This document shows positions 666 to 9,831 of a DNA stretch of 64,000 nucleotides, one piece after another. This DNA is from an uncultured Chloroflexia bacterium. GTDB lineage: Bacteria > Chloroflexota > Anaerolineae > CG2-30-64-16. A model generated the notes under the pieces. That model was not told the DNA's origin, did not search any database, and worked only from the letters and a program-made list of their open reading frames with translations. Position 1 is the first letter of the stretch, and the number at the start of each line of letters is the position of its first letter. The stretch is from the NCBI GenBank assembly GCA_963774265.1, contig CAVZDU010000005.1, forward strand, positions 448,001 through 512,000. The letters are read 5' to 3'. The position numbers were made by a program, and so were the translations under genes.

Positions 666-3600
666 TCACATCCCGGCCAGATGCCGCGCCACGTTGATGA
701 ACAGGTGACGCCCGTCAGCTGTCATGAGCGGCGGGCCGGCCTGGAAGCCCCAAAGCAGGAAACGCCTCTCCCGCAAATCCTGCTGCACCAGGTTGTAGTG
801 CGTCTCGTCCGCGGGCTCGCGGCCGATCAGCAGTATACTGGCTGGCGGCTTCTCGACCCGGACGCCGACATGGGCCGTCTTGCCATAGACCCGGACAAGC
901 CGGTCCCGGCCCATCGGGATGCCGTATGGGCTGTGCCACACGTCGTTCACCGCATCTACAGCATAAGTGTACGCCTCGTTTCCGTGCCAGCCATTCGGAT
1001 AGCCGATGGCCAGCCCCGCCTTGCCGAAGAACGCGTAGCCACCCTCTCCAAGGCCAAGGATCGGTGTGGAGTACTGCAGCAAGGCACCCACCGCCGCGGA
1101 CGTGCCCCAGTCGGCCCCGTCGCCCGTCTCCGGTCCGATCACGATCAGGTCGTAGCTGCCCCACACGGTCTTGGCGACCTCAGCCATGGGGACAAGGTCG
1201 ACCGAATAAGAGCCCGCTTGGAGCAGTCTCTGGTAGGCCACCGCGGCCGGAAGGTTGTTCAACCAGATGTAGGCCACGCGCGGCCGCACTGAGAAGCCGC
1301 CCGTGCGATGCCGCACGAAGAGCTGATCGGAGTTATTCCTGCCCCAGCCGGTTGCCTTTACGACATACTGGCCGGGCAACAGTGCCTGAGTGAAGACTCC
1401 GCCATAGACCCCGTCGCCGGCCCTTCCGTCCATGTTCCGGCCGTCGTCGAAGAGCTGGAGCAGTTGCATCAAGTCCGAGTTTGGCCCCTTCACCAGCGCC
1501 CATACTTCCGCACCCGCGATCGGCTTCTCGTCAGACAGCACGACCAGGATCGGGATCTTCGCGCCGACGGTCCGTTCCTCAGGCGGCAGTCCGAAGCCCA
1601 GGTGCATGCTGGTTTGCGATCTGGCAGAGAGGATGAAGAGGTAGTTGGCGCACCCCTTGGCTTGTAGCTCCACCTTCCAGGGACCCCCGAGCGGATCCTG
1701 CACGCGGAACTGGTGGTGGGTGGCGTCCCGAATCTCCCGCACCTTCGGCGGATTGTGCTTGACCAGATTGCCGTCCGGGTCGGTGAGAATCATCTCGATG
1801 GAAACCGCGGGGTCGTCCCAGTTTGTCGTGAAGATCGCCTCGGGCAGCCCCTTTTCGACGGGGAGCTCGAAGATCACCGGCATCTCGCAGATGTAGCCGG
1901 TGCTCTCCCAGACCCGCTGCTGGTGGCCGTTTACCTCGCCCATAGCCTTGTAGATGTCGGCCAGACGGTTGGGGAGCGTGGTGGGCAGGTTGGGACCGGG
2001 CACGGCCGCCGGCGCCTCGGTTGCCGCGGCGTCGGCTGCGGCCGCCAGCGGCAAGATGTCCACGCCCGCCTGGAACGCGCGGCCGTCCGTGTCTGCCGCG
2101 ATATCACCCAGAAGCGCCGTATCCGCGTCGCGGCCGAGCGCCACCGTGTGCACCACCACCCGCGACGGTATGATCACGCCACCGACCGTCGCATCAGCCC
2201 AGTAGGGCGATACGTTCTCCATGCCGTCGCTCAGCAGCGCCAGGCTCCAGTCATGGTCTTCCTTACCCCGTGCGAGGAGTTCGTCATAGCCGAGCTTCGC
2301 GCCCGGGCCCAGCGCGGTCAGGTTGCCGGTCGTCAGCGCGTTGACCGCGGTCTTGGCCGCGTTCCATTCCGGATCGCCGGTGACGGTCGTCAGCCCGTAG
2401 TTAACCGCCGCGCTTGACTCAAAGGAGACTACGCCGATCATGTCGTCGACATTGGTGTGGTCGATGAACGCACGCGCGGCATTCTTCGCGGCCTCAAGCT
2501 TGTCATAATCGGCCATGCTCCCGGAGCGGTCGATCACCAGCACCTGGTCGGCGTTTAGCTTCGGCAGGTAGAATACGGCGCGCTTCTCGGTATCCGTTTG
2601 CGCGCCCAGCGTCACCTCCAGGTCATAGTAGTCCGCCGCAGGCTGCGTGTGTGCGCTGACGACGAGGAAGTGGGTGTCGAGGGAGCGATAGGCGGAGATT
2701 ACGGGGCTGTCCTGCCCGCCGATGCGCACTGTGAAGTCGCTTGCGGTGTAGGTGACCGGCGAGCTGCTGGGTGGCGTGGCGGTCTTCACCTGCACCAGGA
2801 TTTTGTCCGGATCGTTGAACGCGCCCGCGTTCGTGGGGTTGGTCTCAGTGGGCTGAAGGATGTCGAAGATCGGCGTGCAAGCCTGGTGACTGGACGCGTT
2901 GAAGTTGTCGGTCTCGCCCAGGGCGGGCTCATACTTGCCGTCTCGGTCTGTGTCCTCACAGCCATCCACCGAGCTGTCATTGTCGTTGTTGGCGTCCAGC
3001 TCCTTGCGCTGGCCATCGGAATCATGATCTGCGGTGCGCAGACTGTATGTGCCCGCGGTGTCGAACACATACTCCCGAAGGTCCTGTTTGTCCTGCACCC
3101 AGTCGTCGTCCGAATCCGCGTAGGCCGGCATAGTGTGGAAGCGATTCTGCTCGTCCCAGTCCATCACTCCGTCGCCGTCTGCGTCGGTCCAGATCCCGGG
3201 CTCATCCGAGCGAGGAGAGACAGAAGCTGGCACAGGTGGGACGTAGTAGCAGGTGATGCTCAACGAACTGTAGTTTTGCCACGTCGTGCCGCTCCAGGGG
3301 TCGAACAGCCGGATTTGCTGCGTACTATCGGCCAGGGTGCGGTAGCCGCCGATCACCGTCTGATGGCCGTTGAAGAAGCGCATGATCGGCCTGCTGGCAT
3401 CGATCCAGCCTGTCACCTGCGCGAAGGTCGGCTTGGCGTACGCGTAGTCGAAGCTGGCGCCGTTCAGCGCCCAGGACAGCATCTGGCCGCCATGGCTGCC
3501 GTCACCGCCGCACACACTGGTGGTGCGGTCGTGGCCGAGGTCACGCAGCGGGTTATTCTTCTCCCCAATATCGGCCAATGGGCTGCCCCAGTTCTCGAAC

Positions 3601-4961
3601 TGGTAGTACCCGATGCGATCCATGCTCAGATTGCCGCCGTAGTGCGTCACGATCATGGCGATGGATGCGCGGACGCAACTGTTCCGGCCGTGGGTGTAGA
3701 TCCCGTCCGGGTGCACCGCGTCCCATGCCTCTTCCTCCCCTGACGTCGCGGGGTTGCCCTCGTTGTCGCCGTCGAGACACAGCAGGGGGTTATCCTTCTT
3801 TTGGCGCAGCCATGTCATGGATAGCACGACATCAGGGCCGATGCTCAGGGCCTCCGCAGTGTCGCCTGCGGCCATAGCGCTGGTTACGGGGATCACCGTC
3901 ACGCTGAGGGGCGTCGACCAGGCGGACTGCAACGCGCCGAGGCGGCTCCGGACGCGCCACCAGAAGGCGCCACCGGGCAGCGGCGACGCAGGCGTGTAGT
4001 ATGGTTGGGTCAGCTCGACGTCGACCAACGGCGAGCTGAAGCCTGGGTCATTGTCGATCTGGAGCTGATAGGTTGCGCCGGGCACCAGCATCCAGCCCAG
4101 TGCGAAGCCATCGCTTGCCATGACCGCGCCATCGCCGACCGTGCTCCAGATGGAGCGCGGCACCGGGTTGGACGTGCCCGGGGTATGATCCTCCGGGCCG
4201 TAGGCGGCCCAGTCATCGGGGGAAAGATTGACGTGGCCGGGATAGAGGCCGATCGTTCGATTGGCGGGAAGCGGCGCGGACGCGTCCTGCGCGCCGGAGC
4301 CGACGTTGAAATCAACCCACCAGTCTGACCTCCACAGCCCGGCCGCGATCGCATCAGTGGCGCCCTCGCCGGGGGCCGCGCCGTAGGCCACGAAGTCCCG
4401 AATGGTCTGAGGGTCATGTGTTGATCCGGCATAGAGCGCGACCTGGTCGCTTTCCGGGTTGAACATGTCCACCAAACCGGGGGGTGAATGCAGCACGGCG
4501 CGGCCGTCGCCGAAGCTGTAGTCATCCGCGGCCGGGCCAAGCCCGTCGAAGTAAATCACCACGAAGCAGCCCGGCGGAATCCCCGGCAGGGCGGCCGGGA
4601 TAGTGTAGTTCCCGCCGCTCTGATTGCTCACCTGCCAGCCGCTGATGTCCGGACCGGACTCCGCGGTGGGTGCGACAAAGGATGGCGTTGCGGCCGAGCC
4701 GGCAACCGGGCCCGACCCCTTCATCACGAGGGGCAGATACAGCAGGTAGTTCGTTCCAACCGCGGACAACTCAACCCACTGGTGCTGCCCTGCAAGCGGA
4801 CGGGCCAGCACCTCGTTGAGATGGACCTCAGAAGCGCTGGTTGACATCTGATCGGCAGAGGCGGGGAAGCCGGGTGCGGCTGAGAGTGCCGGGGTCGAGC
4901 CCGCGGTGAGGAGACAGACGACGACAATCGAGCAGGCAAGTGTCGCGATTCTGATCTTCAT
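666..4961 (-). CDS. Large secreted multidomain protein: lamin-tail-like, FN3-like, C39/papain-like peptidase, DxDxDG Ca-binding repeats, vWA, CLCA-like C-terminal region
   Basis: Signal peptide; LNEV..WVEL..DISGWQ; NSCVRAS/NGHQTVIGGY/LFDPW triad; DADGDG, DSDDD, DHDSDG, DTDRDG; MIDAS DRSGS..T..LSDG; LFDDG..DG.AGDGVY; RBS aggagg. Confidence 0.8.
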   Translation of the reverse strand: MKIRIATLACSIVVVCLLTAGSTPALSAAPGFPASADQMSTSASEVHLNEVLARPLAGQHQWVELSAVGTNYLLYLPLVMKGSGPVAGSAATPSFVAPTAESGPDISGWQVSNQSGGNYTIPAALPGIPPGCFVVIYFDGLGPAADDYSFGDGRAVLHSPPGLVDMFNPESDQVALYAGSTHDPQTIRDFVAYGAAPGEGATDAIAAGLWRSDWWVDFNVGSGAQDASAPLPANRTIGLYPGHVNLSPDDWAAYGPEDHTPGTSNPVPRSIWSTVGDGAVMASDGFALGWMLVPGATYQLQIDNDPGFSSPLVDVELTQPYYTPASPLPGGAFWWRVRSRLGALQSAWSTPLSVTVIPVTSAMAAGDTAEALSIGPDVVLSMTWLRQKKDNPLLCLDGDNEGNPATSGEEEAWDAVHPDGIYTHGRNSCVRASIAMIVTHYGGNLSMDRIGYYQFENWGSPLADIGEKNNPLRDLGHDRTTSVCGGDGSHGGQMLSWALNGASFDYAYAKPTFAQVTGWIDASRPIMRFFNGHQTVIGGYRTLADSTQQIRLFDPWSGTTWQNYSSLSITCYYVPPVPASVSPRSDEPGIWTDADGDGVMDWDEQNRFHTMPAYADSDDDWVQDKQDLREYVFDTAGTYSLRTADHDSDGQRKELDANNDNDSSVDGCEDTDRDGKYEPALGETDNFNASSHQACTPIFDILQPTETNPTNAGAFNDPDKILVQVKTATPPSSSPVTYTASDFTVRIGGQDSPVISAYRSLDTHFLVVSAHTQPAADYYDLEVTLGAQTDTEKRAVFYLPKLNADQVLVIDRSGSMADYDKLEAAKNAARAFIDHTNVDDMIGVVSFESSAAVNYGLTTVTGDPEWNAAKTAVNALTTGNLTALGPGAKLGYDELLARGKEDHDWSLALLSDGMENVSPYWADATVGGVIIPSRVVVHTVALGRDADTALLGDIAADTDGRAFQAGVDILPLAAAADAAATEAPAAVPGPNLPTTLPNRLADIYKAMGEVNGHQQRVWESTGYICEMPVIFELPVEKGLPEAIFTTNWDDPAVSIEMILTDPDGNLVKHNPPKVREIRDATHHQFRVQDPLGGPWKVELQAKGCANYLFILSARSQTSMHLGFGLPPEERTVGAKIPILVVLSDEKPIAGAEVWALVKGPNSDLMQLLQLFDDGRNMDGRAGDGVYGGVFTQALLPGQYVVKATGWGRNNSDQLFVRHRTGGFSVRPRVAYIWLNNLPAAVAYQRLLQAGSYSVDLVPMAEVAKTVWGSYDLIVIGPETGDGADWGTSAAVGALLQYSTPILGLGEGGYAFFGKAGLAIGYPNGWHGNEAYTYAVDAVNDVWHSPYGIPMGRDRLVRVYGKTAHVGVRVEKPPASILLIGREPADETHYNLVQQDLRERRFLLWGFQAGPPLMTADGRHLFINVARHLAGM

Positions 4962-5093
4962 GAGAGGAGCCTCCTGTGGACACTACCAAACGGTCGACGG
5001 AGCATCAAGACGGTCAGCGATGGGATGGTGCGATGTAAGGTGTAACAGGGAGAAGAACCCCTGGGGAGGGGTCAGGTCGGTGGTCGTTGAGTG

Positions 5094-5243
5094 TTATGAT
5101 TTCCCTTGGGTGAGCGACTTCTGATAGGCCTTCCAGCCGGGGCACCAGCTGGTGTGCCACTTCCACAGCCGCGCCATCAGCGTCTTCGGATTGGCCTCAG
5201 CCTTCTTGCGAATCGGGCAATCTGCGCAGCGAGGTTCGGACAT
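5094..5243 (-). CDS. 49-aa Cys/Trp-rich small protein (absent from the ORF track)
   Basis: MSEPRCADCPIRKKAEANPKTLMARLWKWHTSWCPGWKAYQKSLTQGKS*, with strong SD gaaggagg 5 nt before the ATG. Confidence 0.75.
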   Translation of the reverse strand: MSEPRCADCPIRKKAEANPKTLMARLWKWHTSWCPGWKAYQKSLTQGKS

Positions 5244-5270
5244 GCTGACCTCCTTCGAAAATGATCTCGA

Positions 5271-6512
5271 TTACCCGGTTGGGACGGCGGCTGGCACCAG
5301 TTGGACCTGATAGCCCAGCTTCTCCAGGCGTTTGACGGCCCGCCGCTTCACAGCTTCACGGTCGCGCTCGTCGAAGTAGTTGCCGCCTAAGTCCTCGTAC
5401 TTGGTTTGCCGAGTGATCAAGTAGTAACCGGTGACCAGCAAGCTGTGCCCGACGGCCATTAGCGCCCGTTGTTTGCCCCGCCGGGCCGCCAGGCGCCCAT
5501 AGAGCGCCTGGAAGTACTTGTGCTTGGTGCGGGCAGCGCCGTGCGCCGCTTCCACCAAGGCTCGCCGCAGCCAGGGACTGCCTTTGCGGGTCTTGCCACT
5601 GTAGCGTTTGCCGGCACTTTCGTTGTTGCCGGGACACATGCCCGCCCACGAAGCCAGATGCTCCGCATCCTCGAACGGCTGCAGGTCGGCCCCAATCTCA
5701 GCGACGACGATCTCCGCAATCCGCTGGTTGATCCCCGGCAGCGAGTCCCAGGCCGCCAGCGCCGGCGCAAAAGGGTGCATCTGCTCCGCGATCTGCTGGT
5801 CGAGCCGGTCGATGGCCTCGTCCAAGAAGTCGATGTGGCTCAGGTGCTGCGCCAACATGAAGCGATGATGCGCCTGCACGCGTCCACTTAGCGCCTTCTG
5901 CAGCAGGTCCAGCTTGTCCCGCAGGCGACCCTTGGCCAGCTCGGCTAACACGGCTGGATCGGCCTGGCCTTGCACGATCTGATCCAGCATCGCTCGTCCG
6001 CTGACACCCATCACATCGGTCGCCACGCTCGCCAGCTTGATGTTGGCGTCTTCCAGCACCTTCTGCACCCGATTGATCTCACTGACGCGCTCATCGCCCA
6101 GCTTGGTGCGGTAGCGAGTCAGATCGCGTAGCGCACGTAGCTCAGCCGAAGGAATGAAGCTCCCTTTGAGCAGCCCGTGCCGCAGCAGATCCGCAATCCG
6201 CTCCGCATCTTGCACATCCGTCTTGCGGCCAGCTAACGCCTTGATGTGCTCTGCATTGACCACCAGAATGGCAAACCGCCCGTCGAGCAGGTTGTACACC
6301 GGCTTCCAGTACACCCCGGTGCTCTCCATCGCCACGTGCGTGACCCCAAGGCCCTGCAACCATTCCGCCAGTGCTTCCAGGTTCTCGGTCAAGGTATCAA
6401 ACGTGCGGGTCTCCTTCACCGATTGCCCATCCGGCCCAGGCACGATCGCACACGCCACCACCGTGCGCTTGTGCACATCGATCCCGCAGCACCGCTCATA
6501 GACCACTTGCAT
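5271..6512 (-). CDS. IS110 family DEDD transposase / bridge recombinase
   Basis: GIDVHK, AMESTG, KTDVQD (DEDD) and C-terminal NESAGK serine motif; start MQVVYERCC with RBS ggagg. Confidence 0.95.
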   Translation of the reverse strand: MQVVYERCCGIDVHKRTVVACAIVPGPDGQSVKETRTFDTLTENLEALAEWLQGLGVTHVAMESTGVYWKPVYNLLDGRFAILVVNAEHIKALAGRKTDVQDAERIADLLRHGLLKGSFIPSAELRALRDLTRYRTKLGDERVSEINRVQKVLEDANIKLASVATDVMGVSGRAMLDQIVQGQADPAVLAELAKGRLRDKLDLLQKALSGRVQAHHRFMLAQHLSHIDFLDEAIDRLDQQIAEQMHPFAPALAAWDSLPGINQRIAEIVVAEIGADLQPFEDAEHLASWAGMCPGNNESAGKRYSGKTRKGSPWLRRALVEAAHGAARTKHKYFQALYGRLAARRGKQRALMAVGHSLLVTGYYLITRQTKYEDLGGNYFDERDREAVKRRAVKRLEKLGYQVQLVPAAVPTG

Positions 6513-6519
6513 CGTGCGC

Positions 6520-6690
6520 CTCCGCTTGCTCGTGATCGCCCCAGCGGAGTGCCTGATATGCGAAGAGTCTCCTTCGCGTACTCCCCCAAATTGGAGGGCC
6601 ACAGTCTACGGTGCCTGCAGGCACTCGAGCCAAACTCCCTTGCGGACTCGTGGCACCAGGTAATTCATCCGACTTCATGCCAGGGCGTCT
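6520..6690 (-). ncRNA. Candidate IS110 bridge RNA
   Basis: Lies downstream of an internal promoter; several hairpins; segments matching target (aagggag) and donor (cgaaggag) junctions in the expected order. Confidence 0.6.
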
Positions 6691-6695
6691 CCACC

Positions 6696-6723
6696 ATTCT
6701 ACGCCCCCATTTTCATCCGTCAA
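6696..6723 (-). promoter_or_regulatory. Sigma70-type promoter inside the IS110 left end
   Basis: TTGACG-N16-TAGAAT on the minus strand; the spacer contains a G homopolymer. Confidence 0.55.
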
Positions 6724-6765
6724 CGGTGAGCCAACGGCTAATCGACAACTCCCTTCTTGCTGAAC

Positions 6766-6771
6766 ATTATA
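6766..6771 (-). promoter_or_regulatory. Host -10 box, probably the original promoter of the 49-aa gene
   Basis: TATAAT 13 nt outside the IS110 left junction core; no clear -35. Confidence 0.45.
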
Positions 6772-6978
6772 CACGCATAGGGCCAAAGCATCACAACCCT
6801 AAGAAGACTCTCTGCCCAGCCTCCTGCGTTTGCGTGCTTTGGGAAAAATGGTGATTCCCCCGGCCGCTTGCTCACCCCGCCACGCGCGTTATATACTGCA
6901 CCGCGTCCCGCTCCTTCCTTGCCCCGCTGCGCGGACCAAAACAGAGAGTACGACGAACTGCATCACATAGGAGGAATC

Positions 6979-9831
6979 GTGACGGATCAGCCTGTCTACA
7001 CATTGCCTGTGAGAGACGCATTGGGGGAGTTTGATGTCCAACTGGAGACCGGTCTGACCAGCCAGGAAGTCCAACTCCGCCGGGAACGCTATGGCCTAAA
7101 CGAGCTACAGGAGAAACCGCGGCCGGGCTTCCTGAAACTGCTATTCGATCAACTCAACAATTTCCTGATCATCATCCTGATCGTTGCGGCCGTGATATCG
7201 CTGCTGCTGGGCGAGACGATCGATGCACTGGCGATCCTGGCAATCGTGGTGCTGAATTCCGTCCTCGGCGTCGTCCAGGAGTCGAAGGCCGAGCAAGCGC
7301 TCGCTGCGCTCAAGAAGATGGCCTCTCCCAACGCCCAGGTGTTGCGCGATGGCCTGCAGGTCACACTCCCGGCCCGTGAGCTGGTTCCCGGCGACATCGT
7401 GCTGTTGGAGGCTGGGAACTACGTGCCGGCGGATCTGCGCCTTGTGGAGAGCGTCAATCTCAAAGTCGAGGAGGCTTCGCTCACCGGCGAGTCGGTGCCT
7501 GTCAATAAGGATGCCCGCATGGTGTTCGATGCCGATATCCCCCTCGGCGACCGCAAGAATTCAGCGTTCATGGCCACCGTGGTGACCTACGGCCGCGGCA
7601 AGGGGTTGGTCACCTCCACGGGCATGACCACTCAGATCGGCATGATCGCTGAAATGCTTCAATCCTACGAAGATGAAGCGACGCCCCTGCAGGAGAAACT
7701 GGCGCAGCTCGGTAAAACATTGGGCATCGTCTCACTCGCCATCTGTGGTTTCATCTTCCTGTACGGCGTGATTCGTGACACGAATCCCGGCATGATCTTT
7801 CAGGAGGGCATCAGCGGTTACCTCGCCGCGCACGAAAAAGATCTCATCGGCCTGTTCATGACCGCAGTGAGTTTGGCTATTGCAGCCGTGCCTGAAGGGT
7901 TGCCCGCAGTCGTCACCATCTGCCTGGCGCTCGGCATGCAGCGAATGGTCACCCGCCATGCGCTGATCCGCAAGCTGCCGGCAGTTGAGACCCTGGGTTG
8001 CGCGACGGTGATCTGCTCCGACAAGACCGGCACCCTCACTCAGAACGAGATGACGGTGGTGGCCGGTTGGGCGGGCGGTCACGCTTTCCAGGTCACCGGC
8101 GAAGGTTACAACCCCGAAGGTCAGTTCTACCGGACTGAGACGCCGTTTGCACCGGCCAATGACCCGGCGACCTCGATGCTCTTGCAGGGCGCGTTGCTAT
8201 GCAATGATGCGAAGCTGGAGCCGAGCGGTGAGGAGTCCGGCGAGCGTACCTGGCGTATGATGGGCGATCCCACCGAGGGTGCGCTGGTGGTGGCCGCGGC
8301 CAAGGCGGGTCTGTGGCGCGCCGACATGGAGAACAGCATGCCGCGCGTGGCCGAAATCCCCTTCGACTCTGACCGCAAGCGGATGACCACCATCCATCAG
8401 GTGGGCGACCTGGGCTTACGCGTTTCCGACTTCGGGGATGCCAGGACACCTGCTCCTGGGCAGACGCCACAATCCTGGCTGGCGTTTGTTAAGGGCGCGC
8501 CCGACATTGTGTTGGAGTACTGCGACGACATCATGCTGGATGACCGTGTGGCGCCTCTGACCGCGGAGTTGCGCGGGGAAATCCTGGCGGCCAACACCAG
8601 CATGGCGCGCCAGGCGCTGCGCGTGCTGGGCCTGGCGTGCCGGCCGCTGGACGCCGTGCCCGATGAATCCACATCGGACGAAATCGAGCGCAACCTGACC
8701 TTCCTGGGCCTGACGGGCATGATCGACCCGGCCCGGCCCGAGGTCAAGGTGGCCGTGGACGTCGCGAAGCAGGCGGGTCTGAAGAGCATCATGATTACGG
8801 GCGACTACCGCGATACGGCCCAGGCCATTGCGGGCCAGATCGGCATGCTCACCAAGGGTGGCCAGGTGCTCACCGGCGCTCAACTCGATGCTATGGATGA
8901 CGATGAGCTGAACGCAATGGTTGACCACCTGGATGTTTGCGCCCGTGTGTCTCCGCAGCACAAGATGCGCATCGTTGAGGCCCTCAAGACTCGCGGCCAC
9001 ATCGTGGCCATGACGGGCGACGGCGTGAACGACGCGCCGGCGTTGAAGCGCGCCAACATCGGCGTGGCCATGGGCATCACCGGCACTGATGTGACCAAGG
9101 AGACCGCCGACATGGTGCTGACCGACGACAACTACGCCAGCATCGTCTCGGCCATCGAAGAAGGCCGCATTATCTACTCCAACATCCGCAAGTTCGTGTT
9201 CTACCTGATCTCGTGCAATATCGGCGAGATCCTGATCATCTTCCTGGCGATGTTGGCGGGCCTACCCATCCCATTGCGGCCGATCCAGCTCCTGTGGCTG
9301 AACCTGGTGACCGATGGCGCGCCAGCCTTGGCGCTGGGTTTGGAAAAGGGCGATCCCGACATCATGCAGCGACCGCCGCGGCCGACCAAGGAGCCGGTGA
9401 TCAATCGTGAGATGCTGCTGGGTGTCGCCGTTCAGGCCATCGCCATGACCTCAGCCGTGTTAGCGGCCTATCTTATCGCGGGCGCTCGTCCGGGCGCAGA
9501 CGCCAACGATCCCATGCTGCCCAAGTGGCAGACCATCGCGTTCACGACGCTGGTCATGTCCGAGCTGCTGCGGGCGTACACGGCACGCTCCGAGCGCTAC
9601 GCGCTGCTCAAGATCGGGGTGTTCGGCAACAAGTGGATGCAATATGCCGTGGGTGCGTCTCTGATCCTGCTGCTGTTGGTGATCTACGTGCCGTTCTTGC
9701 AGTCTGTCTTCGGCACGGTGGCCTTGAACCTCGGCGATTGGCTGATGATGGCGCCGTTTATCCTGCTGGCCTCGGTCGCAGCCGAGCTGACCAAGGCCTA
9801 CCTGCGTGCGCGCAGCGCGAAGGCCTCTTGA
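6979..9831 (+). CDS. Cation-transporting P-type ATPase, type IIA (Ca2+-ATPase-like)
   Basis: [35 protein letters not shown]; GTG start after aggagg. Confidence 0.95.

Follow-up and report, generated by a model that had tools for sequence, protein, structure and literature searches.

The stretch of DNA analysed here (the window, 64,000 nt) contains an intact IS110-family element, located at 6748–5250 on the minus strand and inserted in the Shine–Dalgarno sequence AAGGG-AG^GT. Very probably its left end specifies a bridge RNA, about 156 nt long, that folds into a three-way junction, has its right target guide (RTG) 5' of the left target guide (LTG) and uses AG as core; we regard this as the best explanation overall. 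The layout is that of a bridge RNA with a variant architecture. The boundaries of the element, the family of its protein, a conserved RNA structure, and the covariation of the LTG, the left donor guide (LDG), the RTG region and a 2-nt extension of the LTG were observed directly and are described in turn.

The element and its insertion site

The following features were assigned to the element and its flanks.

5250–6748, minus strand: IS110-family insertion sequence, 1499 nt including one copy of the AG core at the right end
6749–6755, minus strand: flanking left target with core, AAGGG + AG (core at 6750–6749)
5271–6512, minus strand: transposase (recombinase) gene, 413 aa, identified with Pfam and NCBIfam profiles
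5250–5263, minus strand: right end with the conserved CATTTTC (5263–5257), overlapping left donor plus core, CGAAGG-AG (5257–5250)
5094–5249, minus strand: right target GTCAGC (5249–5244) and a 49-codon gene (ATG at 5243–5241) whose ribosome-binding site is hit

The element starts with TTGTCG at 6748, directly preceded by AAGGGAG (6755–6749), and ends with ...TTTTCGAAGGAG (5257–5250), which is followed by GTCAGC and the ATG. Three near-identical copies with common ends are present in the genome (C5, the copy in the window, C10 and C3; 99.3–100% identity). The same 7 nt precede all three, and the flanks further out differ. In a genome of the same genus (G002) an empty site, ...ACTGAAGGGAGGCCGCCATGTCC..., was found without the element; here the orthologous small gene has an intact Shine–Dalgarno site, AAGGGAGG, 5 nt before its ATG. 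The empty-site support for the boundaries is this one site. Many other junctions were placed by guide match, a procedure covered by permutation controls (recurrence of the LTG and LDG and the two-base extension tests, see below).

Ribosome-binding sites appear to be the aim of the element and its close relatives. The site is rebuilt with the element's own right end, so that insertion would cut the gene off from its promoter and leave it translatable. In the excerpts of the literature on IS110 and Shine–Dalgarno target sites considered here, ribosome-binding sites are not described as a target.

The protein contains PF01548 (N-terminal DEDD RuvC-like domain, 1e-32) and PF02371 (C-terminal Transposase_20, 4.4e-20) and reaches 274.8 bits with NCBIfam NF033542, 'IS110 family RNA-guided transposase' (cutoff 140). 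Its residues D12, E63, D99, D102 and S299 align with D11, E60, D102, D105 and S241 of IS621 (phmmer against 8wt6_A, whose chain numbering is offset by 2; E 7.4e-17), which are named as catalytic in the excerpt of PMC11208158. The stop codon lies at 5273–5271, leaving 21 nt to the end of the element at 5250.

Besides the gene, the element carries short conserved DNA motifs. ATTTTC stands directly before the LDG match in nearly all orthologs. An inverted copy of the right-end CATTTTC is found in the left end (GAAAATG, 6714–6708); this 7-nt pair is conserved in relatives and its members lie at very unequal distances from the two element ends. A conserved CATG is situated near the left tip.

The predicted RNA and its conserved fold

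Upstream of the transposase gene the following features were assigned.

6696–6723, minus strand: internal promoter-like site, TTGACG (6723–6718), 16 nt, TAGAAT (6701–6696), 10 of 12 matches
6534–6689, minus strand: predicted bridge RNA, about 156 nt, with putative ends from the 5' strand to the 3' strand of helix G
6689–6679 and 6545–6534, minus strand: closing helix G, detected by permutation test
6671–6674, minus strand: 5' strand of helix H1, AGUC, pairing with GGCU (6631–6628) and closing the target-binding loop
6658–6661, minus strand: RTG proposed here, ACCU, complementary to the core AG and the right-flank GT
6643–6657, minus strand: hairpin A (GGUGCCACGAGUCCG), small and conserved, between RTG and LTG
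6635–6642, minus strand: LTG, CAAGGGAG, identical to left target plus core
6633–6634, minus strand: UU after the LTG, the same as the two bases with which the element begins (right donor +1 and +2)
6618–6626, minus strand: 5' strand of helix B:D, GAGUGCCUG, containing GUGCC, pairing with CAGGCACUC (6555–6547) and closing the donor-binding loop
6583–6598, minus strand: hairpin E (CCCUCC-AAUUU-GGGGG), with CCUCC (6597–6593) in its 5' arm
6569–6576, minus strand: LDG, CGAAGGAG, the same as the terminal 8 nt at the right end of the element (5257–5250)
6546–6550, minus strand: ACUCC, earlier proposed as right donor guide (RDG); 6550–6547 form the 3' end of helix B:D

A structured RNA model constructed in this analysis (R1) matched the window at 6532–6682 as its sole hit (112.5 bits, E 9.3e-25) and matched 55 places (53 distinct) in 57 sources, located in orthologous elements. 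An Rfam scan of 5000–7100 (E up to 10) yielded no family for the left end and only three chance-level matches elsewhere. The sequence-only reading with which this analysis began had placed a guide RNA in the left end of an IS110-family element, and the R1 match together with the covariation of guides and DNA bears this out. All strings it had named, including GUGCC-UGCA-GGCAC (6624–6611), are found on the minus strand where it placed them, and its junction strings are correct as well.

That reading had also proposed the internal promoter TTGACG-N16-TAGAAT. It is among the two promoter-like sites found in 6300–6900, compared with 0.1 expected from shuffles. A -10-like TANNNT is located upstream of the start of the RNA model in 39 of 50 orthologs, mostly at 12–25 nt (control 51-mers: 495/2160, 23%). 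Conservation of the -35 box was not found in the closest relatives.

Four RNA-library runs (X1–X4) gave contigs that are only 90–99% alike to the element, mostly over the transposase gene; in all 24 runs the shares were small (0.05–0.22 of sampled words). A 152-nt contig from X1 spans 6601–6751. Loose contig ends at 6755 and 6756 suggest relatives that are inserted elsewhere with the same boundary. As neither start, strand nor level can be read from these contigs and DNA may be present, they were not used for expression or habitat. We infer that the bridge RNA is made, where it ends and that the recombinase binds it, and, by analogy with IS621, how it pairs.

In the model structure 86.7% of 1136 cells are paired (shuffles: 65.2%). 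Changes on both sides are seen in 22 of 23 pairs. These counts lean towards the model, since the alignment (A3) was fitted to its structure. Helix G was assessed by permutation: the longest helix between an element's own strands averages 8.88 pairs, versus 5.63 in mismatched pairs (0/5000 permutations). Helix H1 comprises 4 pairs (96.1% of cells paired, changes on both sides in 4/4) and hairpin A 5 pairs, four of them with changes on both sides (92.4% paired). Helix B:D, with 9 pairs and 89.5% of cells paired, has changes on both sides throughout (9/9) and is fully swapped in the elements L020, L030, L033 and L035. Hairpin E is kept in orthologs with different sequences; as it varies in length, only 65.6% of its cells are paired when columns are fixed. 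The minimum-energy fold of the window RNA contains G, B:D and E, and folding of the single sequence scores no better than folding of shuffles (z = -0.73). With the raw MAFFT alignment as input, RNAalifold recovered H1 and hairpin A only, the long-range helices being misaligned until realignment with the covariance model.

Three further pairings were considered. The GUGCC-UGCA-GGCAC hairpin, earlier placed between guides one and two, lacks conservation (paired cells 64.6%, in shuffles 65.2%). A CGAAG/CUUCG hairpin formed by the LDG and the bases after it is attractive in several elements, but in fixed columns it stands at 47.1%, the same as in shuffles (47.1%), and was rejected. Pairing of GGUGCC (6657–6652) with GGCACC (6615–6610), which would make a pseudoknot with B:D, hardly varies and was left out of the count.

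The internal copies of the flank and of the right end could also work as DNA, for instance as direct repeats bound by the recombinase, with no bridge RNA being made. The conserved CATTTTC of the right end, GAAAATG of the left end and CATG of the left tip resemble protein sites, and the RNA-library runs gave no evidence of transcription, their contigs belonging to relatives. The conserved helices, however, use strand-specific G–U pairs, such as the U–G pair of hairpin A in 47 of 53 sequences. On the other strand these would be C–A mismatches, which argues that a single-stranded transcript from the transposase strand is under selection. Also at odds with a purely DNA-level function are the -10 box at a fixed distance upstream, the score of the protein as an IS110 family RNA-guided transposase, and the RNA guidance demonstrated for IS621 and ISEc21 in the cited parts of PMC11208160 and PMC11187229. 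We consider such a function extremely improbable.

Guides, core and the donor side

The two left guides of the bridge RNA recur in the DNA of their own elements. With the two bases after it, the LTG (LTG(+2)) recurs over at least 7 nt in the own left junction in 22 of 28 elements, compared with 64 of 752 mismatched pairs, and its agreement with the left target is 6.70 for own versus 2.92 for other pairs (0/2000). Ortholog LTGs such as TCAGGAG, TTAGGAG and CAGAGCAG each match their own flank. The LDG recurs over at least 7 nt in the own right end, directly after ATTTTC, in 24 of 36 elements (mismatched pairs: 71/1246) and agrees with the left donor with 7.71 versus 3.25 (0/2000). In an in-genome paralog CAAGGGAG is present both at the LDG and at the right end. 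Mononucleotide shuffles of the 173-nt RNA contained the 7-mer in 421/20000 and the 8-mer in 133/20000 cases. Both left guides had been read correctly to the base before, the LTG as AAGGGAG (6641–6635), and both covary with left flank and right end, respectively, across orthologs.

The last two bases are common to LTG and LDG in 45 of 52 distinct RNAs (AG in 30, AA in 15); the commonest shared length is 2, and in the elements L015, L024 and L033 the core is 2 nt. The 4-nt GGAG core suggested for the window resolves into a 2-nt core, AG, and two coincident G's.

An unbiased screen of 13 RNA regions against 4 DNA segments in 2 senses gave 0/2000 in four combinations only: LTG with left target, LDG with left donor, the region before hairpin A with the right target (as complement), and B with the right donor. 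The third of these is the proposed RTG. A separate test (0/5000) likewise found the stretch directly 5' of hairpin A to complement the own core and right target, and over 37 insertions its pairs beyond the core average 1.41 for own versus 0.43 for permuted combinations (0/10000 permutations). Pairing spans few bases, 4 nt in the window, and is irregular; by a strict rule 18 of the 37 insertions have no pair beyond the core. Within the genome the RTG fits two of three insertions (right flanks GT, GT and TC), the copy at TC pairing at the core only. When bulges of 1–2 nt in the RNA were allowed, own and mismatched scores both rose and nothing decisive was added.

RNA regions 3' of the LTG gave no signal of complementarity to the right target (304 to 912/2000). 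The IS621 order LTG-RTG-LDG-RDG that had been assumed is therefore not the order found here, the segment that tracks the right target being 5' of the LTG. CCUCC, taken for the RTG in that order, is the 5' arm of hairpin E, and its region gave 912/2000 against the right target. Its column facing RT+1 shows no excess (411/5000), and in the closest paralogs it is replaced by GCCCC or CCCCC with the AG core kept.

The two bases following the LTG, UU in the window, also follow the DNA. With the left end located from the LTG alone, both match the first bases of the element in 34 of 41 elements, one matches in 5 and none in 2 (permuted mean 7.1; 0/10000). These two nucleotides, in the same sense, are all that was found to track the right donor. 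An RDG was sought in the 5' strand of the donor loop, in hairpin E, in the bases after the LDG and in helix D and its flanks, with no replicated signal; the limits of the alignment, or the number of usable elements (only about 40), may account for this negative result. In a first round of 20 elements B resembled the right donor (0/2000) and D was complementary to it (4/2000); in 20 previously unused elements neither signal was replicated (2411 and 1567/5000, respectively). A column matrix against the right donor showed no diagonal.

ACUCC, the earlier RDG, shares four of its five bases with the 3' strand of helix B:D, and its family-wide complementarity is 2.28 of 5 compared with 2.11 in permuted combinations (409/5000). 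Complementarity of all five bases to the left junction GGAGT is confined to the four closest relatives of the window, among which there is no variation, and the first column is at chance against RD+1 (1669/5000). On the covariation of guides and DNA, the sequence-only reading thus stands for its LTG and LDG; its RTG and RDG do not track the DNA.

One may still ask whether the RNA is IS621-like, with LTG 6641–6635, RTG CCUCC, LDG 6576–6569, RDG ACUCC and GGAG as a 4-nt core. The four strings are all present and consistent with the junctions of the window copy, their order agrees with the IS621 scheme as given in the cited part of PMC11208160, and ACUCC is complementary to GGAGT in the window and in L006, L007 and L013. 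Weak excesses were seen for the RDG columns against left donor, core and RD+1 (38/5000) and, marginally, for the five RTG columns against left donor, core and RT+1 (46/5000), besides the 4/2000 of the D zone. These excesses can stem from shared base composition, however, and the D-zone signal failed in the further elements and in the matrix. CCUCC and ACUCC lie in helices whose partners change with them, and occur in 2310 and 2174 of 20000 shuffles (about 11–12% each, the level of chance). Together with the chance-level first columns, the paralog variants of CCUCC and the 2-nt cores, this makes an IS621-like RNA with such a layout very unlikely.

It is less far-fetched, if still rather unlikely, that an RDG exists and was missed, being discontinuous as in IS621 and overlapping helix D together with the adjacent bases on its 5' side. 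AUC (6557–6555) and ACUCC of the window line up in register with the donor's GAT and GGAGT; partial in-register complementarity is visible by eye in the window, L007 and L013, and the D strand has matches of 5–7 nt to the core G and right donor in L024, L071, L020 and L035. The RDG of IS621 likewise pairs discontinuously according to excerpts of PMC11208160 and PMC11208158. Against this, the register is inconsistent across lineages, the family-wide tests fail or were not replicated, and the D strand is taken by B in 89.5% of cells.

Proposed mechanism and comparison with known systems

The bridge RNA with its RTG 5' of the LTG would probably start about 7 nt after the TAGAAT box and fold into a three-way junction of closing helix G, a target arm and a donor arm. 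The target arm would be an internal loop around hairpin A, closed by helix H1, and the donor arm a loop around hairpin E, closed by B:D. The RTG (ACCU) would lie on the 5' strand of the target arm and pair with the top-strand bases of AG+GT; the LTG would follow and then UU, matching the first two bases of the element. Both left guides would end in the 2-nt core AG, presumably the point where recombination joins target and donor.

Transposases of about 400 aa of this kind form a subfamily found from Chloroflexota to Bacillota and Actinomycetota. Tentatively, we suggest that this IS110-proper subfamily may use a mirror-image target loop (RTG 5', LTG 3') in which 'handshake' bases of the LTG reach the donor bottom strand, and no RNA guide for the right donor, a proposal we hold to be possible but short of probable. 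[quoted passage not shown]

Bridge RNAs are under development as programmable recombination tools, and nearly all of their design rules derive from IS621 and its close relatives. A bridge RNA that is widespread, lies in the left end and has its guide strands swapped would mean that solutions other than the IS621 layout exist, and would offer a second set of design rules as well as a possible evolutionary link to the seekRNAs of IS1111. The product-mimicking 2-nt extension of the left guide and the lack of a detectable right-donor guide would have the same import.

The IS621 bridge RNA is compared here from excerpts of Durrant et al. (2024; PMC11208160) and Hiraizumi et al. (2024; PMC11208158). 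As in IS621, the RNA is encoded in the left noncoding end on the transposase strand and has two guide-bearing loops; LTG and LDG (8–9 nt) repeat the left target and the left donor, respectively, and each contain the common 2-nt core; the RTG is short and complements core and right target; and the recombinase is of the DEDD plus Ser type. In the target loop of IS621 the LTG is the 5' and the RTG the 3' guide, whereas here the sides are reversed. AG or AA takes the place of CT as core, a 2-nt extension 3' of the LTG matches the donor in the bottom-strand-pairing sense, no RDG was detected, and the protein has 413 aa compared with 328 aa in the solved chain. Many bridge-RNA models already deviate from IS621 in large surveys, according to an excerpt (bioRxiv 10.64898/2026.10.21.760802), so the swapped-guide layout may have been depicted in earlier work.

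The seekRNAs were compared from parts of Siddiquee et al. (2024; PMC11187229). That of ISEc21 (IS110 type) is likewise encoded in the upstream noncoding region and is a short RNA matching both target strands, but its top-strand match is 3' of the bottom-strand match, and here it is 5'. The IS1111-type elements (ISEc11, ISKpn4, ISPa11) differ in two respects: here the RNA is upstream of the transposase gene, with only 21 nt after the stop codon; and IS1111 transposases have 330–350 aa compared with 413 aa here, the same source giving 395–455 aa for the IS110-containing subgroup. IS1111-type elements have sub-terminal inverted repeats of 7–17 bp; the element in the window has the 7-nt GAAAATG/CATTTTC pair, at very unequal end distances. 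The order of their guides is the one found here, as in IS1111-type seekRNAs, too, the complement of the top strand lies 5' of the bottom-strand match.

Boundaries of the element and its insertion site

The element, on the minus strand of the window, encodes a 413-aa protein which matches the NCBIfam model NF033542 ("IS110 family RNA-guided transposase") with 274.8 bits (cutoff 140). In an alignment with 8wt6_A, the solved recombinase of IS621 (E 7.4e-17), its D12, E63, D99, D102 and S299 fall opposite the IS621 catalytic residues named in PMC11208158. Functionally, the element is an ordinary representative of a known kind.

6512-5271, minus strand: transposase gene, 413 aa, PF01548 and PF02371
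5243-5094, minus strand: small gene, 49 codons, four Cys, ortholog at the empty site in G002

Three near-identical copies are present in the genome, on contigs C5 (the window), C10 and C3. In all three the left flank ends with AAGGGAG, followed by the element start TTG(T/C)(C/T)GATTAGCC, and the right end reads ...CATTTTCGAAGGAG; the right flanks are GTCAGC-ATG, GTTTC-ATG and TCATCC-ATG. The same-genus genome G002 contains an empty site, ...GTGTATAATATCCCCACTGAAGGGAGGCCGCCATGTCCGAA..., with the same -10-like box, one AAGGGAGG and the same small gene. The element therefore comprises 6748-5250 and was inserted in a Shine-Dalgarno site. This site is rebuilt by the element's own right end, which supplies a new AAGGAG before the ATG of the small gene.

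The insertion (window 5241-5260 and 6749-6780; L086, 2100-2160) parts the small gene from the -10-like box TGTATAAT around 6773-6766, and transcripts from this host box would run into the left end of the element. On the other side lies a gene of 987 aa (6868-9831, plus strand) whose translation includes DKTGT, a motif that marks P-type ATPases. Close relatives show the same habit: for the ten copies in one Anaerolineae genome (L007-L012, L014, L043, L051, L066), the right flank runs into an ATG after about 3-9 nt.

Immediately upstream of the C10 copy lies an 82.7% paralog, so that two distinct members of the family follow each other head to tail (L002, about 1500-4493). The paralog, which has lost its left flank because the contig stops there, terminates with ...TTTTCAAGGGAG, which together with the next GT is a perfect target for a window-type element, and such an element is sited right behind it. 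In 14 of 38 distinct left flanks (L015, L016, L021, L025, L026, L028, L031, L034, L036, L056, L071, L081, L082 and the L002 copy) the 8-nt left target is immediately preceded by an ATTTTC-like run, versus 43 of 1900 random 12-mers. It seems that many elements of the family are located straight after the right end of a different member, or of another copy of themselves. Contig C2 carries a left-end remnant of 75.8% identity (L005, 1498-1713), which belongs to a third relative and stands alone, with an RNA model match of 64.4 bits and no transposase gene behind it, and its flank GGAAGGAG agrees with its own left target guide UAAGGAG.

Left guides, core and fold of the predicted RNA

From the sequence alone a bridge RNA had been proposed in the left end, with left and right target guides (LTG, RTG) and left and right donor guides (LDG, RDG). 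Each string quoted for it is present where it had been placed. Mononucleotide-shuffled versions of the RNA rarely contained the 7-mer (421/20000) or the 8-mer (133/20000); each of the two 5-mers turned up in 11-12% of them.

For comparison 79 loci with related transposases (36-88% identity) were fetched. Two variable 8-mers follow the conserved anchors GGUGCY...GAGYCCG and AGCACG. The second (LDG) was found, with at least 7 nt exact, directly after ATTTTC in the element's own right end in 24/36 distinct elements (71/1246 for mismatched pairs), and the first (LTG) plus two more bases at the own left junction in 22/28 versus 64/752. This recurrence at the own junctions bears out both left guides. 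The states differ widely among elements, for the LDG CGAAGGAG, CAAGGGAG, AAGAGAG, CACAGCAG, CACGGTAG and CATAGTAA, for the LTG AAGGGAG, TCAGGAG, TTAGGAG, CAGAGCAG, CAGGGTAG and TCGGAA; the in-genome paralog has CAAGGGAG as LDG and right end, the window copy CGAAGGAG in both. In L026, which seems to lie behind another copy of itself, LTG and LDG are nearly the same. In the L016/L017 relative, inserted in an (AGAGC)n repeat which agrees with its LTG AAGAGCAG, hairpin E is enlarged by a long insertion, and a (GAACGC)n repeat separates RNA and gene.

Of 52 distinct RNAs, 45 have the same last two bases in LTG and LDG (AG 30, AA 15), and the commonest length of the shared suffix is 2 (20/52). The stretch shared at the DNA junctions has a length of exactly 2 in 8/26 elements and of 3 in 9/26. 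The core is two bases; the GGAG taken for a 4-nt core consists of AG and two G's coincidentally common to target and donor. With the left end placed from the LTG alone, the two RNA bases after the LTG are those with which the element begins in 34/41 cases (permuted mean 7.1; 0/10000), with ten different dinucleotides in the set. [quoted passage not shown]

A covariance model was built from 26 sequences, its structure written from the comparisons. Across 57 sources it matches 55 places, 53 of them distinct, including distant Bacillota and Actinomycetota elements, with a single match in the window (6532-6682) and five in the whole genome. In the derived alignment 86.7% of 1136 cells are paired versus 65.2% in shuffles, counts that are favoured by fitting the alignment to the model.

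Helix H1 (target arm): 96.1% paired
Hairpin A (target arm): 92.4% paired
Helix B:D (donor arm): 89.5% paired, both sides changed in 9/9 pairs
Hairpin E (donor arm): 65.6% paired, length varies

Full B/D swaps were seen before alignment (CGACGACC with GGUCGUCG, GGGUGGCUG with CAGCCACCC, GGCGAUCCG with CGGAUCGCC). Helix G closes the two ends of the RNA, the own longest helix averaging 8.88 pairs versus 5.63 for mismatched ends (0/5000). The formerly assumed GUGCC-UGCA-GGCAC hairpin stays at shuffle level (64.6% vs 65.2%); the partner of GUGCC is the GGCAC further downstream, in helix D, and not the local one.

The claimed internal promoter-like site was recovered by a scan (2 sites vs 0.1 expected). 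A TANNNT box precedes the model start, mostly by 12-25 nt, in 39/50 distinct elements versus 495/2160 control 51-mers; the window has TAGAAT there, at a distance of 7 nt from helix G. The nearest relatives do not share the -35 box. As the scan found no terminator-like site downstream, the predicted RNA may arise by cleavage of a longer transcript. In public RNA libraries matching contigs came only from relatives.

Right target and right donor

The CCUCC (6597-6593) read as RTG is the 5' arm of hairpin E, and its column facing RT+1, the first right-target position, is at chance (411/5000). We screened 13 RNA regions against left and right target (LT, RT) and left and right donor (LD, RD) in both senses. 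Four of these 104 tests gave 0/2000: LTG with LT, LDG with LD, the 12 nt directly 5' of hairpin A as complement of RT, and B resembling RD. By a rule fixed beforehand, the core had to pair and contiguous Watson-Crick pairs into RT were then counted. Own RNA-RT combinations averaged 1.41 pairs versus 0.43 for mismatched ones in 37 insertions (0/10000); a first set of 31 had given 0/5000. Clear cases are GGUUCU with AG+AACC, GUCAUU with AA+TGAC and CAGCCU with AG+GCTG; the signal is uneven, 18/37 insertions having no pair beyond the core. The right flank of window-type copies begins with GT in two of three and with TC in the third.

6661-6658, minus strand: proposed RTG, ACCU, opposite AG+GT

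The RTG is therefore located 5' of the LTG with hairpin A in between, and the order LTG-RTG-LDG-RDG given in the sequence-only reading is not supported.

Of the ACUCC (6550-6546) read as RDG, four of five bases form the 3' end of helix D, and the column facing RD+1 is at chance (1669/5000). Full complementarity (5/5) of these columns to the relevant junction is confined to the window and three close relatives, among which they are invariant; family-wide, complementarity is 2.28/5 versus 2.11 permuted (409/5000). Two marginal excesses (38/5000 and 46/5000) can be explained by shared base composition. Signals linking B and D to RD in the first 20 elements came from few lineages (L031, L071, L036) and did not replicate in 20 others (2411/5000, 1567/5000), and a column-by-position matrix showed no diagonal. 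Thus neither region screen, proposed columns, matrix nor replication set yielded an RDG.

On its right side the donor has conserved DNA features that could be read by a protein: a CATG located at about +5 to +9, a hairpin at the terminus, and GAAAATG. GAAAATG (6714-6708, left end) is an inverted copy of CATTTTC (5263-5257, right end). Both are conserved across the family, GAAAATG about 35-45 nt inside the left tip and CATTTTC 8 nt inside the right one; they may be recombinase-binding sites. At 6743-6745 the copies differ, the window copy starting with TTGTCG and L002 and L003 with TTGCTG. Right-donor positions +4 and +5 are thus swapped while the RNA region is identical, which speaks against their being read by an RNA guide.

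Comparison with known bridge RNAs

The finding of the sequence-only reading is real and half right: guide RNA, LTG and LDG were confirmed, RTG, RDG, hairpin, order and 4-nt core were not. With LTG, LDG, a shared core and a conserved fold the predicted RNA is bridge-RNA-like. IS621 has its LTG on the 5' and its RTG on the 3' side, according to PMC11208160 and PMC11208158; in the window RNA this order is reversed. Section 8 of a 2026 preprint (10.64898/2026.10.21.760802) states, in text that does not describe guide order, that many of its 86 bridge-RNA models deviate from IS621. The layout may already be recorded. Compared with the elements of Siddiquee et al. (PMC11187229), the guide order is IS1111-like, the IS110-type ISEc21 being reversed, whereas the RNA is located upstream of the gene as in IS110 and the transposase is within the size range given for the subgroup containing IS110 itself. 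The RNA architecture of the element is a variant which deserves a bench test.
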